From a virus (lineage: Duplodnaviria > Caudoviricetes), in IMG/VR virus record IMGVR_UViG_3300012979_000002, positions 32,001 through 96,000 of that record: a stretch of DNA of 64,000 bases. The stretch is one strand, 5' to 3'. This document shows positions 15,501 through 27,264 of the stretch, one piece after another. The notes beneath the pieces were generated by a model. It saw only the letters and a list, made by a program, of their open reading frames with translations, was not told the origin of the DNA and searched no databases. A program made the translations under genes and the position numbers. Each line of letters starts with the position of its first letter. Position 1 is the stretch's first letter.

Positions 15501-16014
15501 TTGGAATAAAGTTAATGAATGGAATTTTGGAACAGGATTGAGTGTTCAAGTTTTAAATGGTAGGGCTACAATTAATGCCGTAAATCCATCAGCAAGTTCT
15601 GTTCGTCAATTCTCCTCTTTAGAAGACGTATCGGTTACATATGATGACACCAACGTTGGTAAACTGTTACAATTAGGGAAAACAGAATCTGGCGTATATA
15701 ATATAGAATTAACGTCAGCTCCTCCATTACACCTATACATGACTAAAGACAGTTATGCGTTCAATGATGAAAAAATTAAACGAGCAGTTAATTCAGATAA
15801 TGCTGACAGGGCAGATACAGCAGATAAACTACACAATCGTTATGCTGTAAACGATGCCGGTATTTCAAATTCAACTCTATGGTCAGCAGCACAAATTAAA
15901 TCAAACACTACTTCTCAAATTAAAGCTGAAGGTGTTAATACTTTTAGTGGCACTGGAGTGCCTACCAATGACATAGGTAAAGATGGAGATTTATACATCT
16001 TATTAGAAGATTAG
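12586..16014 (+). CDS. Large baseplate/tail fibre protein
   Basis: Follows Dit; central coiled coil; NLWYTETRV fibre motif; C-terminal GTGVPTNDIGKDGDLYI motif. Confidence 0.7.
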   Translation: MQDFIRIRGEIISSPLNENFRRLLNQISISNTNLVFPEENAIVNTLDDRDAIKNPDDAQVCYVVSSGELYRFSKKDDKWYKIMDIGQTFRQGFLNSGAVVLEDIIKLEEGSNTILSMPDMLVYFKNKEGDNRYLKGMYKIDAQSFDVSPYISSAGAFSIFIDENQHYFINAGMPTTDTPSNIYIGSFLTDKESHVRSDFIYTIPDIAYTADRGHFFVDGGKVSGLDLAPASGKKIGRKEGFYYDEGISCTLGSTDAFPADTDNGSNFNLKWFPAETETGNLYYAYPVDTISNGFEQVQTNELIIDKFYNPDTKQLEKVESGSFTIQHHLVTPNGQNIMIYGQAVYNSFVDAQSNLNTPLAIDADFPFAEVTRVIVGNVSGFSTAHETDCDFFVMQRLAQVGTISPVFADNIFTLYSGDAEDDVPSQVKFSLKQLQKTQFNNVYTLNIKTDKDKEYLFALDKQYLYGHNDATTNSTMSIADRITNRDYTNKVDAVYGYTIPTEHDITTLRDRVTAIETELWKAPDAKATLETLEQNIVNQSVRFRLYDIERRATLNETEIKNHARELTRLNLVKVEKETSINGHPLGDPEKTTVEHITLYTGDITEGAGLNNKPKNLWYTETRVSKNPDVKNATDHINTFGSGAESTKNPHRLSTDDLTVGSNKFVTQNDLNKLANVPANTNNELNKKLESITIQSLTGTSPTTLGKVDTIAVKTFGAKISVDETNRIATLECVGQMDPNDYMSKADYAHTSMNDSSKFGYVDKALKADNLTAVADGTPSQYYGTNVDGIAGVYDLPKWVDTEDPERVLTADAESVMFQPVPHSITLKHLANSKVLYTNYNEETKLNTNVYDLVKNHYHKVYNDAVQGPYSNANNTDPVEATVYYAYTIPSGGLKGQTYQFACGNDLYQFAGTTSMVAGMILQFNPKTKTLVYGNLKPNTDYTINNPVTVGVDTLEVDDVKEELWLDFTTQTDWNKVNEWNFGTGLSVQVLNGRATINAVNPSASSVRQFSSLEDVSVTYDDTNVGKLLQLGKTESGVYNIELTSAPPLHLYMTKDSYAFNDEKIKRAVNSDNADRADTADKLHNRYAVNDAGISNSTLWSAAQIKSNTTSQIKAEGVNTFSGTGVPTNDIGKDGDLYILLED

Positions 16015-17999: not shown

Positions 18000-20552
18000 A
18001 TGTCATATCCTATTAAATTTTTAGTGGATAAAGAAGGAGTATCTTTTATCCCATACACTAATAGTCGAAGTGTATTAATTGATGGAACAGAGACTAAATT
18101 ACAAGACATTTTAGATGTTAAATTAGACCCAGCTGACGTTAAGGCTGGTGGTGATATTAAAGTAACTCCTACAAAGGACACTACTACTATAGCCTGGGTT
18201 CGTCCTACAAACTTAACCGTGCAAGACAATTTAACTACTGCAGCTGCCGGGCAAGGGGTATTAGACGCTCGTCAAGGAAAATTATTATTAGATAATATCA
18301 ATACTCGTATTTTGGCATCAGAAAAAGGAAAGGCTAATGGAGTGGCTACATTAGATGGCAACGGTAAAGTGCCAAGTGGTCAATTACCAGCTTACGTAGA
18401 CGATGTTATAGAATCATACATTGTAAGTGGAGCAACAGCATTAAGTAAGGGATGGTTATCCGCTACTTCAGGAGGAAGCGCCCTAACACCAGAAACAGGA
18501 AAGATTTATGTTATTATGAGTTCTGGTTCTTACCAAAATAAACAATACAGATGGGGAGGTAGCACATATGTATTGTGTAATCCATCTGATGTTAATTCAG
18601 TTAATGGTATGACTGGAGTTATTACTTTAAAAACATTAACATTAAAAACTGCAGCAGGTACTGCTAATACAGTAAATGAAACTTACAATGCTGGTACTGA
18701 TAAAACAGTTACAATTAATGTACCAACTAAAACTAGCCATATTACCAACGATAGTGGCTTTATCACTTCTTCAGCAAATATTACAGGTAATGCTACTACT
18801 GCTACAACTGCTGATAAGACAAAAGGTACATTAACTATTAAAATGAAAAACTATGACAACAACACCGAAACAACTGATACTTTTAATGGTAATGAAGATA
18901 AGACAATTACAATTGGAGTTCCTACTAAGGTTAGTCAATTAGAAAATGACTCTAAGTTCATCACTTCAAGTGCTTCTATTACAGGGAACGCAGCTACAGC
19001 TACTACTGCTACAACTGCTACGAAGACCCAAGGAACTTTAACAATTAAAATGAAGAATTATGATTCTAATACAGAAACTACAGATACCTTCAATGGTAAT
19101 GCAGATAAAACTATCACTATTGGAGTTCCAACAAAACTTAGTCAACTAAATAATGATACGGGTTTTATTTCATCTGTACCACAAGCAAGTACAACAGTAT
19201 CTGGTACTATTAAGATAGGTACTGGTTTGGCTATGGGAACTAATGGAGTAGTTTACGTAACAGGTGAAGGTGTTAGCGCCGAATCAATCGATTGGGAAAA
19301 CGTAACTAACAAGCCAACATATATTACAGACTGGAAAGATTATATTACTGCTGACAGCGATATTACAGGTAATGCTGCTACCGCTACAACATTAGAAACC
19401 GCTAGAACAATTAATGGAACATCGTTTAATGGTAGCAAAAATATTACAACTGCCAACTGGGGTACTGCTAGAAATATTAGTATATCAGATAGCGATGCTA
19501 CTAATACAGGTACAGCCGTATCTGTAAATGGTTCTGGAGCTGTAACCTTAAAATTACCAGCAACGATTAAAGCTTCATTAAGTGGTAAGGCAACAACAGC
19601 TGGAACAGCAGATAAAGCTAACAAAACAGCTGGAACATTAACAATCCAAAAAAATGGTACCAATGTAGCAACATTCGATGGTTCTGGTAATGCCACAGCA
19701 AATTTTACTTTTAAAACAAGTGAAATAACTAATGACAGTGGTTTCATTACAGCCAGCGCTTCAATCACTGGGAATGCAGGTACTGCTACAACTTTGGCAA
19801 CAGCAAGAACATTAACTATTGGTTCTACTGGTAAAACATTTAACGGTGGAGCTAATGTAAGCTGGACCTTAGACGAGATTGGAGCAGCCCCAAAAAGTCA
19901 TACACATAATTATGCTGGTTCATCTTCTGCTGGAGGAGCTGCAAACAGCGTTAAAACTAACTTAATTATTAAATTAAATAGCGGTACTACTGAAGGAACT
20001 AATCTATTTACTTTCAATGGTAGCACAGCTAAAACAATAAACATTACACCAAGTGCAATAGGAGCATCAGCATCTAGTCATGGTCATGATTATTTACCAT
20101 TAACCGGTGGAACAGTGTCAGGGCCAATAACCTCTTCACAAACTTCTTCAACTTGGATTAATTCAGCAAACGGAAAGAGTGCTATCAATTTAACTGGTAC
20201 AGGTTACACTGGATGGATAGCAGGTCCGTCTAAAACTGGTAGATTACTTATTTCAAGTTACTCAGGGAATGACGATAAAATATATTTTGGATATATGAGC
20301 AATGAAGCAATAACAGCAGGAACAAATTCCCTTACAAGACAAATGTCTTGGGACGGTGCTACTGGTACGCTAACTGCTACAACTTTTTCTGGAAAATTAG
20401 GTAATACTTTAACATTAACTAAAAATCGTTCAGATATAAGTTTTAATGGTTCAGCAGCACAAACTGTAATAATACCAACAATACATAATGGACCAGGCGT
20501 GCCAGCTGCATCATTAGGGCAAGACGGCGATATTTATATCGTAACAGGATAG
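18000..20552 (+). CDS. Tail fibre protein
   Basis: KGKANGVATLDGNGKVPSGQLP and VNSVNGMTG motifs; repeated ITGNAATAT, TARTINGTSFNGS and VPTKxSQLxNDSGF modules; C-terminal PAASLGQDGDIYI. Confidence 0.85.
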   Translation: MSYPIKFLVDKEGVSFIPYTNSRSVLIDGTETKLQDILDVKLDPADVKAGGDIKVTPTKDTTTIAWVRPTNLTVQDNLTTAAAGQGVLDARQGKLLLDNINTRILASEKGKANGVATLDGNGKVPSGQLPAYVDDVIESYIVSGATALSKGWLSATSGGSALTPETGKIYVIMSSGSYQNKQYRWGGSTYVLCNPSDVNSVNGMTGVITLKTLTLKTAAGTANTVNETYNAGTDKTVTINVPTKTSHITNDSGFITSSANITGNATTATTADKTKGTLTIKMKNYDNNTETTDTFNGNEDKTITIGVPTKVSQLENDSKFITSSASITGNAATATTATTATKTQGTLTIKMKNYDSNTETTDTFNGNADKTITIGVPTKLSQLNNDTGFISSVPQASTTVSGTIKIGTGLAMGTNGVVYVTGEGVSAESIDWENVTNKPTYITDWKDYITADSDITGNAATATTLETARTINGTSFNGSKNITTANWGTARNISISDSDATNTGTAVSVNGSGAVTLKLPATIKASLSGKATTAGTADKANKTAGTLTIQKNGTNVATFDGSGNATANFTFKTSEITNDSGFITASASITGNAGTATTLATARTLTIGSTGKTFNGGANVSWTLDEIGAAPKSHTHNYAGSSSAGGAANSVKTNLIIKLNSGTTEGTNLFTFNGSTAKTINITPSAIGASASSHGHDYLPLTGGTVSGPITSSQTSSTWINSANGKSAINLTGTGYTGWIAGPSKTGRLLISSYSGNDDKIYFGYMSNEAITAGTNSLTRQMSWDGATGTLTATTFSGKLGNTLTLTKNRSDISFNGSAAQTVIIPTIHNGPGVPAASLGQDGDIYIVTG

Positions 20553-20567
20553 GAGGTGGAGTAAATT

Positions 20568-21902
20568 ATGGCTGGAAATATTAGAGGTAGATATTATGCC
20601 GAAGGTAATAGTTTTAAAGCAAATGTAACAACCAAGGGTAACGCCAGCTCTGCTGGTGGTGCTACCTCAGCATCGCAAATTAGCTCTGGCGCTACAATAT
20701 ATTACAGAAAGCATTCGGCTGGAGCTGCCTATCCAATTGCGGTTTGTAAAACTAACAATAACTGGGTTGATGGTTGGTATCCATTAAACATTGTCCCATG
20801 GGCTACGTATCCCGTATATTTAGATGCAAATGGAGGTTCTGGCGTTGCAGAATCAATCACTAAGACATGGGGAACCAATTACACGCTACCAGAACCAACG
20901 ACCGCCAAGCCTTCTGTAACCTCAGATGGATATAAAGTTACTTATAGTTATGGCAATGGTAACGCTAATACTTCGGAAACGGTAAAAAACACCACTTCAT
21001 ATACATTTGGATACTGGGTTGATGCTAGTTCCGGTGCTACAATAGCACAACCTTTTTCAGATGTTATCAAGGACGACCTAACTGGTTCTGATTCAATTTC
21101 TTATACGGGAGGAACGGCACCTGCCTCACGTTCTTTTAAAGCATATTGGGTAGATTCTTTTAAACGTGGTAGTGTAACGTTACCAACACCAACTTGGGCT
21201 AACACAACAACATCAGGTACTATTACTTATAATGCTTCCACTAATGGAGGTACATCTACTAAGGCATCTGATACTGTTAATTTAAAAGTAACGCATACGT
21301 TTAATGGTTGGTATAATGGAAGTACTAAAGTTGGTAACGCTGGTGCAAGTTATACACCTACAGCTAACGTTACTTTAACAGGTAACTGGACGAACACTTC
21401 AACGGGTAGTGCAAACATTACATTGCCTACTGCTTCTAAGGCAAACGGAACAGCTAGTCGTACGGTTACTATTAATGCTAACGGGGGTTCTACAACCGTA
21501 AGTTCTCGTAAATCAAATGCGACAATCACTTACACAAGTACTGGTTGGTGGACTGCTGCAAGCGGAGGTACAAAGGTTGGGAACAATGGTGCATCTATTA
21601 CACCATCAACAGCCCCTATCACGTATTATGCTCAGTTTAGTAGTTCAACTGGTTCATATAGTGCGGTAACATTGCCTACTGCAGCGCAATGCACCCGTAC
21701 AAATCATACTTTAAAAGGCTTCGCTACAAGCAGCACAGCTACGACAGCGGCATATGCTCCAGGAGCTTCTTATACACCAAGTGGTAATGTAACACTATAT
21801 GCCGTATGGGAAGATTTAACTGGTAGAGTATATGTTAAAAAAGATGGAGCTTGGGTACAAGCTAAAGCTGTTTATACTAAAGTAAACGGGGCTTGGGTAT
21901 AG
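20568..21902 (+). CDS. Putative fibre-tip adhesin with InlB-B (Listeria-Bacteroides) repeats
   Basis: LDANGGS, TFNGW and TLYAVW repeat motifs; C-terminal VYVKKDGAWVQAKAVYTKVNGAWV. Confidence 0.75.
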   Translation: MAGNIRGRYYAEGNSFKANVTTKGNASSAGGATSASQISSGATIYYRKHSAGAAYPIAVCKTNNNWVDGWYPLNIVPWATYPVYLDANGGSGVAESITKTWGTNYTLPEPTTAKPSVTSDGYKVTYSYGNGNANTSETVKNTTSYTFGYWVDASSGATIAQPFSDVIKDDLTGSDSISYTGGTAPASRSFKAYWVDSFKRGSVTLPTPTWANTTTSGTITYNASTNGGTSTKASDTVNLKVTHTFNGWYNGSTKVGNAGASYTPTANVTLTGNWTNTSTGSANITLPTASKANGTASRTVTINANGGSTTVSSRKSNATITYTSTGWWTAASGGTKVGNNGASITPSTAPITYYAQFSSSTGSYSAVTLPTAAQCTRTNHTLKGFATSSTATTAAYAPGASYTPSGNVTLYAVWEDLTGRVYVKKDGAWVQAKAVYTKVNGAWV

Positions 21903-23985: not shown

Positions 23986-24001
23986 TACTATATATTTAAG
24001 G
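23986..24001 (+). promoter_or_regulatory. Putative late-promoter motif
   Basis: TACTATATATTTAAGG after a terminator. Confidence 0.5.
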
Positions 24002-24035: not shown

Positions 24036-25160
24036 ATGTTTAAAGTAAAAGTATTATTACAATTCACAGATTTAACTACTAAAAGAAAGGAAGTGCGCAA
24101 ACCAGGAGATATTTACACAATAGACAACTATGACCGTGTAGAAGTTCTGTTAGGGAAGAACCCCCGCAAGGCAAAATTTGTAGAACTAATTGAAATTGAA
24201 AAACAATGCCCTACTACACACACGGAAAATAAAATCGTGGTTTTCCAAGACCTGTTGTATCGTATAGGAGGTATCGAAACTTTTGTGTTCAATTTCGTAA
24301 AGAACTTTAAAGACTATGACATTACTGTTATAGCTCGTGAATTTGCGTTAACACAAATGTTGGCTATAGCTCAATACGCTACTGTGAAGAAATATACGGA
24401 GGAGAGAATAGAGTGTGATACATTAATTCTAGGCAATTATAATTGCGACTATGTATTACCAAGGGTAAAAGCAAAAAAGATATATCAGATAATACATGCT
24501 GATTGGAGAGGTATTAAACAATTACCAGCATGGAAGGATTTCAAATGGACAAAGAACAAACGCATCGATGAAATCATTTGTGTATCGGATACGGCAGCTA
24601 CTGGATTAAAAGCTACCATGAATTATGATAGTAAGGTTATCCATAATATTTTAGACAATGATTATACCATAGAGGATGGCTTAACTTTCATAACAATGTC
24701 AAGAGCTACCCCAGAGAAAGGTATCGAACGAATGTTAAAAATGGCTCAAGAGTTTAAAAAAGCCAATAAAAAGTTTGTATGGTTTGTATGCTGTACATTA
24801 GACCAAGCCGATAGAAAAATTGTAGAGGCTATTAAACAGATACCAGAATTTGTAATCATCCCACCAAGCATTCATAATAAAATGCTAATTAAAGGATGCG
24901 ATTATTTAGTACAATTAAGTGATACAGAAAGTTTTTGTTATAGTGCCTATGAGGCATTACAACGCAATGTACCTGTTATTTTAACTGATTTCCCAGAAGC
25001 TCATAACATTGTAGATGATGGAGAAAACGGTTTTATTATAAAAAGAGATTTAAGCAATTTGGACGTAGATAGAATTTTCAATGAACGTCCTAAATCAACA
25101 TATTATGTAGATAGATGTAACCAAGATTTATGGTTGCAAGTTTTTAAAGGAGAATTATAG
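24036..25160 (+). CDS. GT-B (GT4-like) glycosyltransferase with an extra ~55-aa N-terminal domain
   Basis: IGGIET, IIHAD, ICVS, IHN, SRATPEKG, LSDTESFCYSAYEALQRNVPVILTD (E-x7-E), VDDGENGF. Confidence 0.9.
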   Translation: MFKVKVLLQFTDLTTKRKEVRKPGDIYTIDNYDRVEVLLGKNPRKAKFVELIEIEKQCPTTHTENKIVVFQDLLYRIGGIETFVFNFVKNFKDYDITVIAREFALTQMLAIAQYATVKKYTEERIECDTLILGNYNCDYVLPRVKAKKIYQIIHADWRGIKQLPAWKDFKWTKNKRIDEIICVSDTAATGLKATMNYDSKVIHNILDNDYTIEDGLTFITMSRATPEKGIERMLKMAQEFKKANKKFVWFVCCTLDQADRKIVEAIKQIPEFVIIPPSIHNKMLIKGCDYLVQLSDTESFCYSAYEALQRNVPVILTDFPEAHNIVDDGENGFIIKRDLSNLDVDRIFNERPKSTYYVDRCNQDLWLQVFKGEL

Positions 25161-25161
25161 T

Positions 25162-25431
25162 ATGAGAAAGACGGCTGCTTTTTGGACCGAGGACTTGCTG
25201 AATAAGTTTATAAGAGTGGCCATGCTTACCCCAGAGGAAAGCGAAATAATCAGGTTGAGAATATATAGCTACACTTTGGAAGAAATAGCGGCTGCCACCG
25301 GCTTGAGTACCAGCACTGTTTCTCGCAGAATAAAATTATTAAATGACAAATACGATGAAGTGGAAGTAGAATATGGGTTCCCTCATAGAACCAAATTAAT
25401 TAAGATGGATAAAGATGAGTATCCATCTTAA
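25162..25431 (+). CDS. Small HTH DNA-binding protein (LuxR/sigma region 4-like)
   Basis: LTPEESEIIRLRIYSYTLEEIAAATGLSTSTVSRRIKLL. Confidence 0.85.
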   Translation: MRKTAAFWTEDLLNKFIRVAMLTPEESEIIRLRIYSYTLEEIAAATGLSTSTVSRRIKLLNDKYDEVEVEYGFPHRTKLIKMDKDEYPS

Positions 25432-25446
25432 TTTTTTTTGCCTTTT

Positions 25447-25582
25447 TATCATTTCTCTATCACTAGTTTATCATAATTTTATTAAGTTCTTTTCATAGTT
25501 TTATCATTATCATATCAAAAGCTTGCGAACCCTTGTAAATAAAGGCTTCGCAGCTCTTTTTTCTTTTTATCATTTTTTATTA
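25447..25582. repeat. Phased array of TATCA-like boxes with an 11-bp period
   Basis: TATCA/TATTA/TTTCA at 25447, 25458, 25469, 25480, 25491, 25502, 25513; again at 25568 (55 nt later, in phase) and 25578. Confidence 0.85.
25520..25568 (+). terminator. Imperfect inverted repeat/terminator embedded in the phased array
   Basis: AGCTTGCGAACCCTT-GTAAATA-AAGGCTTCGCAGCT followed by a T-rich tract. Confidence 0.6.
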
Positions 25583-25588
25583 AACTGC

Positions 25589-25603
25589 TACTATATGAGT
25601 GAA
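25589..25603 (+). promoter_or_regulatory. Degenerate late-promoter-like motif upstream of the four-gene cassette
   Basis: TACTATATGAGTGAA, adjacent to the last phased box. Confidence 0.4.
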
Positions 25604-25639
25604 AGATAAAAAACAAAAAAAGAAAAGAGGTGATACAAA

Positions 25640-25891
25640 ATGTTTATAGGTAGTTTTTTTAGGGTACGCGACAGAACTGAAGCGGAACGAGCAATACCTA
25701 CAGGGACAGGCTCTACAATTATATTTATAGAAACCGAAAATAAGTTGTATGAGAAGAATAGATATGGAATGCTATTAGAGTATAATTTAGGCTTGTCCCC
25801 TAATGCTGAGCTTGATAAGCGTCTAACCGAATTGGAGACCGCTTTTAAAAAATTAAATGAAGAACTAGGAGGAACACAAAATGAGATTTAA
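25640..25891 (+). CDS. Cassette gene 1: small beta domain plus C-terminal coiled coil
   Basis: GAGGTG RBS; 83 aa; ELDKRLTELETAFKKLNEEL heptads. Confidence 0.75.
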   Translation: MFIGSFFRVRDRTEAERAIPTGTGSTIIFIETENKLYEKNRYGMLLEYNLGLSPNAELDKRLTELETAFKKLNEELGGTQNEI

Positions 25892-26126
25892 CCCACAAAC
25901 ACTAATGCAAATGATGGTACAAAGAGACCCTGGACTAATGCAACGCTTTCAACAATTTCAACAAATGATGCAGAATAGTCCACAAATGCAACAACAGTAT
26001 ATGGCTTTCCGTAAGGATATAGCTAACAACCCACAAATGCAAGACCAGGCGGTGAAGAGTGTAATTGATAAAATTAACAATTTACCACCAGCTGGGGGAC
26101 CAACACCCCCAACAAACATTGGATAA
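25881..26126 (+). CDS. Cassette gene 2: Gln/Met-rich low-complexity helical protein
   Basis: GGAGG RBS; LMQMMVQRDPGLMQRFQQFQQMMQNSPQMQQQ. Confidence 0.75.
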   Translation: MRFNPQTLMQMMVQRDPGLMQRFQQFQQMMQNSPQMQQQYMAFRKDIANNPQMQDQAVKSVIDKINNLPPAGGPTPPTNIG

Positions 26127-26184
26127 CACTTACTGGGCCCAGTCAAGTTTATCATATATATAGGAAAAGGAGGAAGGAAACACT

Positions 26185-26766
26185 ATGGAAACAATGAATG
26201 GAATTATGCCAGTATATAATATGGCAGACAACAACACTAATCGATGTGGATTTGGAGGAGGAGACGACTGGATTTGGTTATTAGTCTTCTTCGCTTTAAT
26301 GGGAGGAAATGGCTTCGGATTTGGTAACAATGCTAGCGCAGTTACATCAGATTTCTTATTAAATCAAACTAGCCGTTTAAGCGAACAAATCTTAACGCAA
26401 GCTAATGCTACTAATCAAGGTATCTGCGATTCTACTTATGCTATTAATAATAGTTTAAAAGATTTGGGGGCACAATTATCTCAATGCTGCTGCGACAACA
26501 GATTTGAGATGTCTCAAGGCTTCTGCGGAGTAAACAGAAACATAGACAACCTAAGATACGAAATGGCAGAAAAATTCTGTGCAGTTTACAACAATCAAGC
26601 TAGAGACACAGCTCAAATCTTACAAGCTATTTCAGACAAAGGATACCAAGAACAAATTAGAGAATTAGAAAGAGATAATTTAGCATTATCTCAACGTAAC
26701 CAAACTACAACCATTTTATCAGCAGTCCAAGATATGTTAAAAAACAGCGGAACTATTTCAGCGTAG
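26185..26766 (+). CDS. Cassette gene 3: Gly-flanked hydrophobic segment plus coiled coil with a CCC motif
   Basis: AAGGAGG RBS; GFGGGDDWIWLLVFFALMGGNGFGFG; AQLSQCCCDNRF; N/Q-rich coiled coil. Confidence 0.8.
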   Translation: METMNGIMPVYNMADNNTNRCGFGGGDDWIWLLVFFALMGGNGFGFGNNASAVTSDFLLNQTSRLSEQILTQANATNQGICDSTYAINNSLKDLGAQLSQCCCDNRFEMSQGFCGVNRNIDNLRYEMAEKFCAVYNNQARDTAQILQAISDKGYQEQIRELERDNLALSQRNQTTTILSAVQDMLKNSGTISA

Positions 26767-26769
26767 ATA

Positions 26770-27246
26770 ATGTTTAAGACTTACATGGACCGCATTTACG
26801 ATAGATACCACACGGAAACTACGATGCACGATACAATAGCAATTATATCAGAGATTATGGAAGAAGTGAGAGTAAAGGATGAGAAGATATATAATGACAT
26901 GATTTGCAAGTTAAAAAAGTATATGTATAAAGTTAGTTTAGAGGAAGCGGAAAGTATAGTTGCTAATATGTGGAACGAGTATGGTGTAAAAGGTGGTCGA
27001 TGGACATACGACCAAGTATGTGAAGTTGCCAAACAATACTCTATACCCGAAACGATAGATAGGTGTGAGTTATATGTCGTAATGAATATGTGGGCTACGG
27101 ACTATCAAAGAACCATGCAACACTATGGTTTAGACGATAGGGTAGACATTTATTTAATGTTCAGTTGTGATTGGCTAACAGATTGCGACTTTGGTAAAGG
27201 TAAAGTATATAAATACTTTGTAGAAATGAAGAAAGAGGATGAATAA
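26770..27246 (+). CDS. Cassette gene 4: helical protein of unknown function
   Basis: 158 aa; EAESIVANM...GGRWTYDQV...LYVVMNMWATDY...DWLTDCDFGKGKVYKYF. Confidence 0.75.
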   Translation: MFKTYMDRIYDRYHTETTMHDTIAIISEIMEEVRVKDEKIYNDMICKLKKYMYKVSLEEAESIVANMWNEYGVKGGRWTYDQVCEVAKQYSIPETIDRCELYVVMNMWATDYQRTMQHYGLDDRVDIYLMFSCDWLTDCDFGKGKVYKYFVEMKKEDE

Positions 27247-27264
27247 TCCTCTCTTTCTTTTTTT
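27229..27264 (+). terminator. Rho-independent terminator closing the cassette
   Basis: AAGAAAGAGGAT-GAATA-ATCCTCTCTTTCTT followed by a T-run, overlapping the stop codon. Confidence 0.8.

Follow-up and report, generated by a model that had tools for sequence, protein, structure and literature searches.

An array of seven T(A/T)T(C/T)A boxes, repeated with an exact 11-bp period, lies at positions 25447..25517 (+ strand) of the window, the 64,000-nucleotide stretch of phage DNA analysed here (bases 32001-96000 of a viral record that is complete at 120,526 bp, with a 123-bp terminal repeat and 35.5% GC). The T-TCA core of the boxes is conserved and their spacers are variable. On sequence grounds the array is taken to be real and functional, and it is probably a docking platform for the 89-aa helix-turn-helix (HTH) protein encoded immediately upstream, whose binding would go together with activation of a gene cassette downstream. 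The HTH protein is the best candidate for the binder, the boxes would be bound cooperatively and head-to-tail, and activation, rather than repression, is the most likely outcome. The principle is already known; the element described here is an enlarged variant of an established phage regulatory design.

The Phased Box Array

The boxes read TATCA at 25447, 25458, 25469, 25502 and 25513, TATTA at 25480 and TTTCA at 25491. Re-reading bears out this list, which was given in a preliminary description of the DNA, and the 11-bp spacing is exact for all seven boxes, with TRF also reporting a period of 11. One additional TATCA, at 25508, is out of phase and was absent from the earlier list. The 6-nt spacers do differ from one another, and a fresh tandem duplication is thereby excluded as the origin of the array. 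The preliminary description had proposed a comparison with shuffled sequence, and this was carried out with a motif-agnostic statistic (any 5-mer, periods of 8-14) on dinucleotide shuffles of the intergenic region. The array has five exact boxes in a run of seven, and four or more exact boxes were obtained in 0 of 2000 shuffles. It is the strongest periodic array genome-wide (120 kb), and the sole place on either strand of the genome with at least three T.TCA boxes in helical phase. Being unique, it would have a regulator dedicated to it. Periodic repeats of other types (TAGTA/ACTACT-rich; TAATC at 5/10/15 bp; one 15-bp repeat) are present outside the window, at L029:1980-2161 and L029:6600-6700 (genome 10979-11160 and ~15600-15700) and at genome position ~26327.

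The layout of the array resembles that of a head-to-tail protein-binding site, as originally suggested, although two further points of that suggestion have to be modified. The boxes had been said to keep their phase across a hairpin that follows the array. A TATCA does lie at 25568..25572 (+ strand), exactly 5 x 11 bp after the box at 25513, but the 13 related intergenic regions all lack it, and it is probably a chance occurrence or peculiar to this lineage; the TATTA at 25578 is out of phase, being 10 bp and not 11 bp further on. The boxes had also been placed on one face of the DNA. In relaxed B-DNA, a strict 11.0-bp period accumulates a drift of ~100 degrees in 66 bp, so that wrapped or underwound DNA would be more likely than a flat face.

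The repeat unit is T-rich at positions 9-11 and at position 1, and boxes that are 22 bp apart mimic the arrangement TTATCA-N17-TATCAT. Both features are consistent with a reading that dispenses with a dedicated protein, in which the array is a curved, T-tract-phased upstream element or a group of weak sigma-A-like -35/-10 look-alikes. This is highly unlikely. The best-conserved letters of the unit are T1, T3, C4 and A5, the T-tracts being less so, and since curvature has no need of a conserved C, curvature alone does not explain the pattern. The promoter-like match, for its part, reaches only 9/12 and is no commoner here than in shuffles.

Conservation in Related Phages

Ten homologues of the HTH protein (36-85% identity) were examined, seven from a first search together with P0010, P0011 and P0024, and their loci gave 14 distinct intergenic sequences that contain the array. 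In a gap-free layout with the last box as the common anchor, the 11-bp register and the T-TCA core are seen to be conserved in all 14 lineages, with drifting spacers. Mean column identity is 0.89 in core positions versus 0.74 in spacers, a difference of 0.15, and the maximum among the other ten phase shifts is 0.11. All 14 share a common order, consisting of the glycosyltransferase gene (where the contig reaches it), the HTH gene with its terminator-like hairpin T1, the boxes, a TCAAA, a second hairpin and a promoter-like motif. The number of boxes varies, with six or seven in the close clade, five in L026 and three or four in L018 and L027. The array follows the HTH gene throughout its clade, and the recognition helix, GLSTSTVSRR, is invariant within the close clade. 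The L020 contig stops just past T1, and hence no array can be read there. Matches to the intergenic region (nucleotide) or to the HTH protein were absent from 50,697 GenBank phage records, and IMG/VR searches with the HTH protein alone or with an alignment of its close relatives as the query returned at most one weak locus.

The 89-aa HTH Protein

The HTH gene (25162..25431, + strand) encodes a stand-alone domain of the sigma-70 region-4/LuxR-GerE type (Pfam Sigma70_r4, 5.6e-8), and it is the sole Sigma70_r4 match in the genome. Its matches in PHROGs are to sigma-factor or regulator families, with phrog_36 at 2.1e-5, and the PDB matches of the family profile are the DNA-binding domains of RhlR, GerE, VraR and NarL. 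The AF2 model of the protein (pLDDT 81.5) is a helical bundle with a long terminal helix at residues 50-71, for which Foldseek retrieves sigma region 4, RcsB and GerE. The family consists of 80-90-aa proteins, with 304 matches at E values up to 0.001 in an exhaustive profile search. The pI of the window protein is 5.8, and that of its relatives 8-9.8.

The possibility that the protein supplies region 4 in trans to a split sigma factor was rejected, as Sigma70_r2 has no match anywhere in the phage genome. A 384-aa protein of this phage (L028:2966-4120; genome ~19965-21119) matches the PHROG 5767 'sigma factor' family at 1.5e-16 and has no Pfam or PDB sequence match; its gene is directly upstream of the terminase-like and portal genes. 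The phrog_5767 family profile that it matches already contains a region-4-like stretch.

Terminators, Promoter-like Motifs and the Downstream Cassette

The HTH gene is preceded by a glycosyltransferase gene (24036..25160, + strand; Pfam Glycos_transf_1, 6.7e-15) in conserved synteny. The glycosyltransferase stop codon lies one base ahead of the HTH start codon, indicating that the pair is probably co-transcribed. T1 (25398..25441, + strand) is intrinsic-terminator-like, with a 14-bp hairpin over the HTH stop codon and then a T8 tract (dG -15.7 kcal/mol, z -5.4), and its hairpin and T-run are present in every relative. On the other side of the array, a second terminator-like element, T2 (25520..25569, + strand), consists of a hairpin (CCCTT...AAGG at its top) and a T-run, with an A-tract upstream (dG -15.8 kcal/mol, z -3.5). 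The structure of T2 is kept in 13 relatives, with one compensatory pair and 21 G-U cells versus 5 A.C cells. This excess of G-U over A.C favours folding of the + strand RNA.

As the G-U pairs show that the + strand is transcribed across T2, and as the array lies between two terminators, the boxes could conceivably function at the RNA level, where an RNA-binding protein would recognise UAUCA repeats and control termination at T2. This is extremely unlikely. The RNA of the array is unstructured on both strands, Rfam gives only sub-threshold chance matches for the region, and a helical-turn period without a single indel, together with the inverted orientation of the boxes elsewhere, argues for recognition of double-stranded DNA. 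Non-coding RNA and RNA-binding readings were dropped because of the first two of these results. The intergenic region also contains small ORFs (26-33 aa), for which there is no support.

Downstream of T2, 51 nt before an ATG, is a conserved, late-promoter-like TACTATATGAGTGAAAG (25589..25605, + strand). The conserved motif at this place is TACTATAT, one of a family of late-promoter-like sites in this phage. Another member, TACTATATAT (23986..23995, + strand), stands upstream of the glycosyltransferase-HTH pair, and its orthologous position is kept in relatives. There are four + strand copies of TACTATATAT (23258, 23986, 27285 and 40886), each of them intergenic and 30-45 nt before late genes. 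Three of these (23986, 27285 and 40886) come after a terminator-like T-run, and the copy at 25589 is a variant. A further motif of the TACTATATAT type is located at genome position 1984. In relatives, the promoter-like motif is found at orthologous sites, 42-53 nt ahead of start codons. It is thus a plausible late promoter, without a visible -35 element. TACTATATAT-type motifs, which as a class stand 30-50 nt ahead of late genes and mostly behind a terminator, probably make up the late promoters of this phage group and are perhaps read by the phrog_5767 sigma-like protein.

The unit proposed to be regulated is a four-gene cassette (25640..27246, + strand) encoding proteins of 83, 81, 193 and 158 aa and ending at a terminator-like hairpin (27234-27252). 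The 193-aa protein (26185-26766) has a transmembrane (TM) segment and a CCC motif, and the 158-aa protein is a DUF7841 protein. No function for the 193-aa protein emerged from the ESM Atlas; the protein has at least 197 tblastn-confirmed relatives in IMG/VR. It is 69-86% identical across the relatives, versus 43-85% for the HTH proteins there.

The last box starts 76 bp before the motif at 25589, and the distance is 76-77 bp across relatives. The preliminary description had the adjacent HTH protein coating the DNA as far as this motif. The protein itself remains the best candidate for the binder, the array tracking the HTH gene, but a coating that extends so far is not supported: the conserved boxes end at 25517, an RNA-type hairpin and 76-77 bp intervene, and the box at 25568 is lineage-specific.

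This distance, the two terminators that bracket the array, the occurrence of the promoter motif elsewhere without an array and the variation of box orientation among lineages can also be accommodated if the HTH protein binds the array with a negative or architectural outcome. The complex would then be a roadblock or insulator reinforcing T1 and T2, or an autoregulatory or titration site, and it is known that arrays of P2 Cox can repress or activate according to their position (PMC3936717). Such a role is unlikely, as the tested Ltr systems, which have the same layout, are activators (PMC3753634) and as no promoter element is overlapped by the array. The constancy of the 76-77 bp to the TACTATAT motif, moreover, suggests a coupling to the promoter.

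The Box Code at Other Phage Loci

More distant loci were collected with the 193-aa cassette protein as the bait, giving 79 IMG/VR loci (534 kb in all). Among their ORFs, 45 match the HTH-family profile at E <= 1e-3, and 44 of the 45 precede the 193-aa homologue on the strand that carries the cassette. Those of the stronger HTH matches that were aligned have a different recognition helix, STAKRLSRR, and three T.TCA boxes in phase occur in 0 of the 79 loci. L078 has a family member with a different recognition helix and no array. In two of the loci, the terminator of a short HTH homologue (68-72 aa) is separated from the ribosome-binding site of the next gene by three tandem 12-bp AAGTCATAGAAT repeats (L062:2680-2730 and the same region of L069), which are absent from close relatives.

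IMG/VR was also scanned with the bare pattern of boxes and period, a query that contained no protein information. Among the matches listed, two are next to genes for proteins of the sigma-4 type. In L246, four to five TGATA boxes at an 11-bp spacing (L246:10840-10910) begin at the end of the gene for a 79-aa member of the HTH family (E 6e-17), the TGA stop codon of which is contained in the first box; a terminator follows the array, the last box overlapping its stem, and then comes the same cassette, with its Q-rich and TM-CCC proteins. In the Clostridioides phage phiCDKH02 (PP767789), the 159-aa gp23 (Sigma70_r4_2, 2e-6) is annotated as a 'sigma factor-like helix-turn-helix DNA-binding protein', and four TGATA boxes at 11 bp (L435:2795-2850) begin in its stop codon, with a terminator next and terS 2.6 kb downstream. 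Variants of the phiCDKH02-type array are present in several C. difficile prophage contigs (L349, L357, L413 and others). In both L246 and phiCDKH02, the boxes run in the inverted orientation with respect to the gene. The HTH proteins of the window and of L246, gp23 and the LtrA of phage 37 all match phrog_36 in its C-terminal part. A literature search for late regulators of this type in C. difficile phages found nothing.

It thus seems, among the matches listed, that a TATCA/11-bp code recurs at other sigma-4-like phage regulators. Recognition helices of the T(V/I)(S/N)RR(I/W) type pair with TATCA arrays and other helices are without them, but the array of L019 is degenerate even though its recognition helix is the same.

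The scans returned other arrays as well. A viral contig has four TATCA boxes at 11 bp (L407:4982-5019), and an HTH_17 (Xis/MerR-like) gene has its 3' end 40 bp away. The matches listed from bacterial genomes are mostly tandem repeats and, in Bacteroidota, arrays in which five to nine (G)ATATCA boxes follow one another every 11 bp (L110:620-720, L118:6350-6450, L135:1020-1090, L162:3000-3100 and L206:2770-2900), certain of which show conservation from one genome to another. These Bacteroidota arrays are unrelated to the phage element.

Relation to Known Regulatory Arrays

The closest parallels in layout are offered by the Ltr superfamily (RinA, ArpU, LtrA, LtrB and LtrC), likewise small phage regulators with a sigma-region-4-like DNA-binding domain. 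In Ltr systems, direct repeats lie distal to the activator gene, the same intergenic region contains the terminator of that gene, and a late promoter follows (PMC3753634). RinA, LtrC and ArpU were tested by Quiles-Puchalt et al. 2013 and are activators, and LtrA, one of the Ltr families, is defined by Sigma70_r4 (PMC3753634). The window has the same succession of repeats just distal to the coding sequence, a terminator, and a putative late promoter and late operon, and weak phrog_36 matches are common to all (6e-19 for the LtrA of phage 37). Several differences are nevertheless apparent. Ltr proteins are ~130 aa long, basic, and have an N-terminal part before the HTH, whereas the window protein has 89 aa and is an HTH only; in hhalign with the LtrA of phage 37 (L024:1225-1626), only the HTH aligns, at a probability of 27%. 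The Ltr gene is just upstream of terS, whereas the window HTH gene is not near terS, the terminase-like gene being ~33 kb upstream, and its target is a cassette in the middle of the late region. Ltr systems have two to four repeats of seven nt, whereas the window has six or seven boxes in a strict 11-bp period and an additional terminator, T1, between gene and repeats. The minimal protein, the position away from terS and the longer phased array together indicate a module that is Ltr-like without belonging to any described Ltr family.

A hallmark of winged-helix regulators of the OmpR/PhoB family is the strict 11-nt unit, in direct repeat (PMC2275107, PMC3798270). The PHO boxes of Streptomyces have a GTTCAY core and 11-nt units, up to six to eight of them, and a 10-nt unit abolishes binding (PMC2275107), and in ArcA sites the direct repeats, also at 11 bp, number two to five (PMC3798270). 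The window array shares with them the exact 11-nt unit, a conserved core containing TCA and a loose spacer. In PHO and ArcA boxes, weak units are filled cooperatively from strong ones, and the same is proposed for the window array. The regulators differ, however, those of PHO and ArcA boxes being host winged-helix proteins and the protein adjacent to the window array having a sigma-4/LuxR fold; PHO and ArcA boxes also usually overlap or replace a -35 element, whereas the last box of the window precedes the -10-like motif by 76-77 bp.

As the exact 11-nt unit is textbook OmpR/PhoB operator architecture, a host response regulator has to be taken seriously as an alternative, and it is the main rival. 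The array would be an operator for an OmpR/PhoB-family protein of the host (e.g. PhoP-like or WalR-like), the adjacent HTH gene would be incidental, and expression of the cassette would be tied to host physiology. Boxes such as TGTCAT indeed resemble the E. coli pho half-site, CTGTCAT. PHO boxes, with a core of 5-6 bp, an AT-rich spacer and two to eight units in which strong and weak are mixed (PMC2275107), and the two to five direct repeats of ArcA sites are in line with this idea. It is nonetheless quite unlikely. The array is attached to sigma-4-like genes in three lineages, starting inside their stop codons in two of these, and is well upstream of the promoter, not in place of a -35 element as is usual for activating PHO boxes. 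The phage genome encodes no winged-helix regulator (Trans_reg_C) of its own, although the host could supply one. A pattern scan of 185,579 species' genomes had, among the matches listed, no comparable AT-rich array near Firmicutes phosphate genes, a result that speaks neither for nor against a host regulator.

Small phage proteins are also known to act on phased repeats. Like P2 Cox, 186 Apl and lambda Xis (PMC3936717, PMC7498355), the window has a protein of ~90 aa and repeats one helical turn apart. The Cox, Apl and Xis proteins form a filament or wrap DNA, with an outcome that depends on the location of the array; they are winged-helix proteins tied to integration and excision, whereas the window protein has a sigma-4/LuxR fold and the phage has no integrase. 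A role as Xis or recombination directionality factor (RDF) was rejected on these two grounds. BvgA on the ptx promoter (PMC7250471) resembles the proposed regulator in another respect, being an HTH protein of the LuxR/NarL type that acts on many weak upstream sites with a high threshold and late activation. Its dimers are placed head-to-head every 22 bp and need phosphorylation, whereas the boxes of the window are head-to-tail every 11 bp.

Genomic Setting

The phage carries tail, fibre and lysis genes, including a CHAP-domain endolysin, with the tail, fibre and lysis genes on the + strand. Replication genes are on the - strand and comprise a 1280-aa DNA polymerase (PHROG 405), a primase, a DnaB-like helicase, NrdD and a RecJ-like exonuclease. 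The terminase-like, portal and 384-aa 'sigma factor'-like genes lie ~33 kb upstream of the array. The Phage_integrase profile identifies no integrase in the genome and Resolvase gives a sub-threshold match only, which suggests a large, lytic phage infecting a gut Firmicute.

Repeats of 11-12 bp beside a small adaptor gene are found in the plasmid centromeres parC/ParR of plasmid R1 (ten 11-bp iterons) and tubC/TubR. The array shares with these its head-to-tail boxes about one helical turn apart and its small adjoining gene, its site is unique in the genome, and T1 shields that site from incoming transcription. The HTH-array complex might accordingly serve a DNA transaction, acting as an anchor or centromere-like site, as a site recognised in packaging or as an auxiliary origin of replication. 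This is quite unlikely. Whereas parC/ParR and tubC/TubR have a partition NTPase, profiles for tubulin and for the ParA-type ATPase (AAA_31) have no match in this lytic-type phage genome, which argues against a centromere. The lack of an integrase also speaks against a DNA transaction, and for packaging (pac), the terminase and portal genes are ~33 kb away. With regard to an origin, cumulative GC skew has no signal at the array site (57.4 kb of the genome) and replication genes occupy the opposite arm. The arrays of phiCDKH02 and L246, furthermore, are in the classic position of a late regulator. The comparison with plasmid centromeres, iterons and Xis-type sites that had been made in the preliminary description is thus unlikely to extend to function, given that searches found no ParA-type partition ATPase, no tubulin and no integrase and that GC skew has no signal there.

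Proposed Mechanism and Implications

In the favoured reading, the HTH and glycosyltransferase genes would be expressed late from the TACTATATAT-type promoter, and the HTH transcript would terminate at T1. HTH monomers would then fill the six or seven boxes cooperatively and head-to-tail, the boxes being asymmetric, -35-like (T(T)nTCA) and 11 bp apart. As several weak and strong boxes need to be filled, the complex would form only above a threshold concentration. Once formed, it would activate the promoter-like TACTATAT motif 76-77 bp downstream and thereby drive the four-gene cassette, which T1 and T2 would otherwise shield from upstream transcription.

Certain features do not sit easily with this mechanism. 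For a classical activator, the distance of the boxes from the -10-like motif downstream of them (76-150 bp, with a hairpin intervening) is large. An array would be no general requirement, since four or five other TACTATATAT sites, if indeed promoters, do without one. LuxR and sigma-4 domains, in addition, are better known on inverted repeats or on single -35 elements.

A bolder reading, which is possible although doubtful, is that a sigma region-4 domain on its own polymerises head-to-tail on 11-bp-phased, -35-like TTnTCA boxes and wraps the DNA. The polymer would act as a dosage-counting late timer for the conserved cassette, and its code would be common to three otherwise unrelated lineages of regulators, including those of Clostridioides difficile phages. 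If this were true, there would be a general 'sigma-4 filament' class of phage regulators with sites that can be read from sequence.

If the docking platform of the adjacent HTH protein is the correct reading, pairs of regulator and site would be predictable from sequence alone in uncultured gut phages and in phages of C. difficile. The search rule would be a sigma-4-like gene with its 3' end running into TATCA boxes every 11 bp. The Ltr-type late switch would be extended beyond terS operons and to a minimal protein of 80-90 aa, and a long cooperative array could set a timing threshold for a conserved cassette that adjoins the lysis genes.
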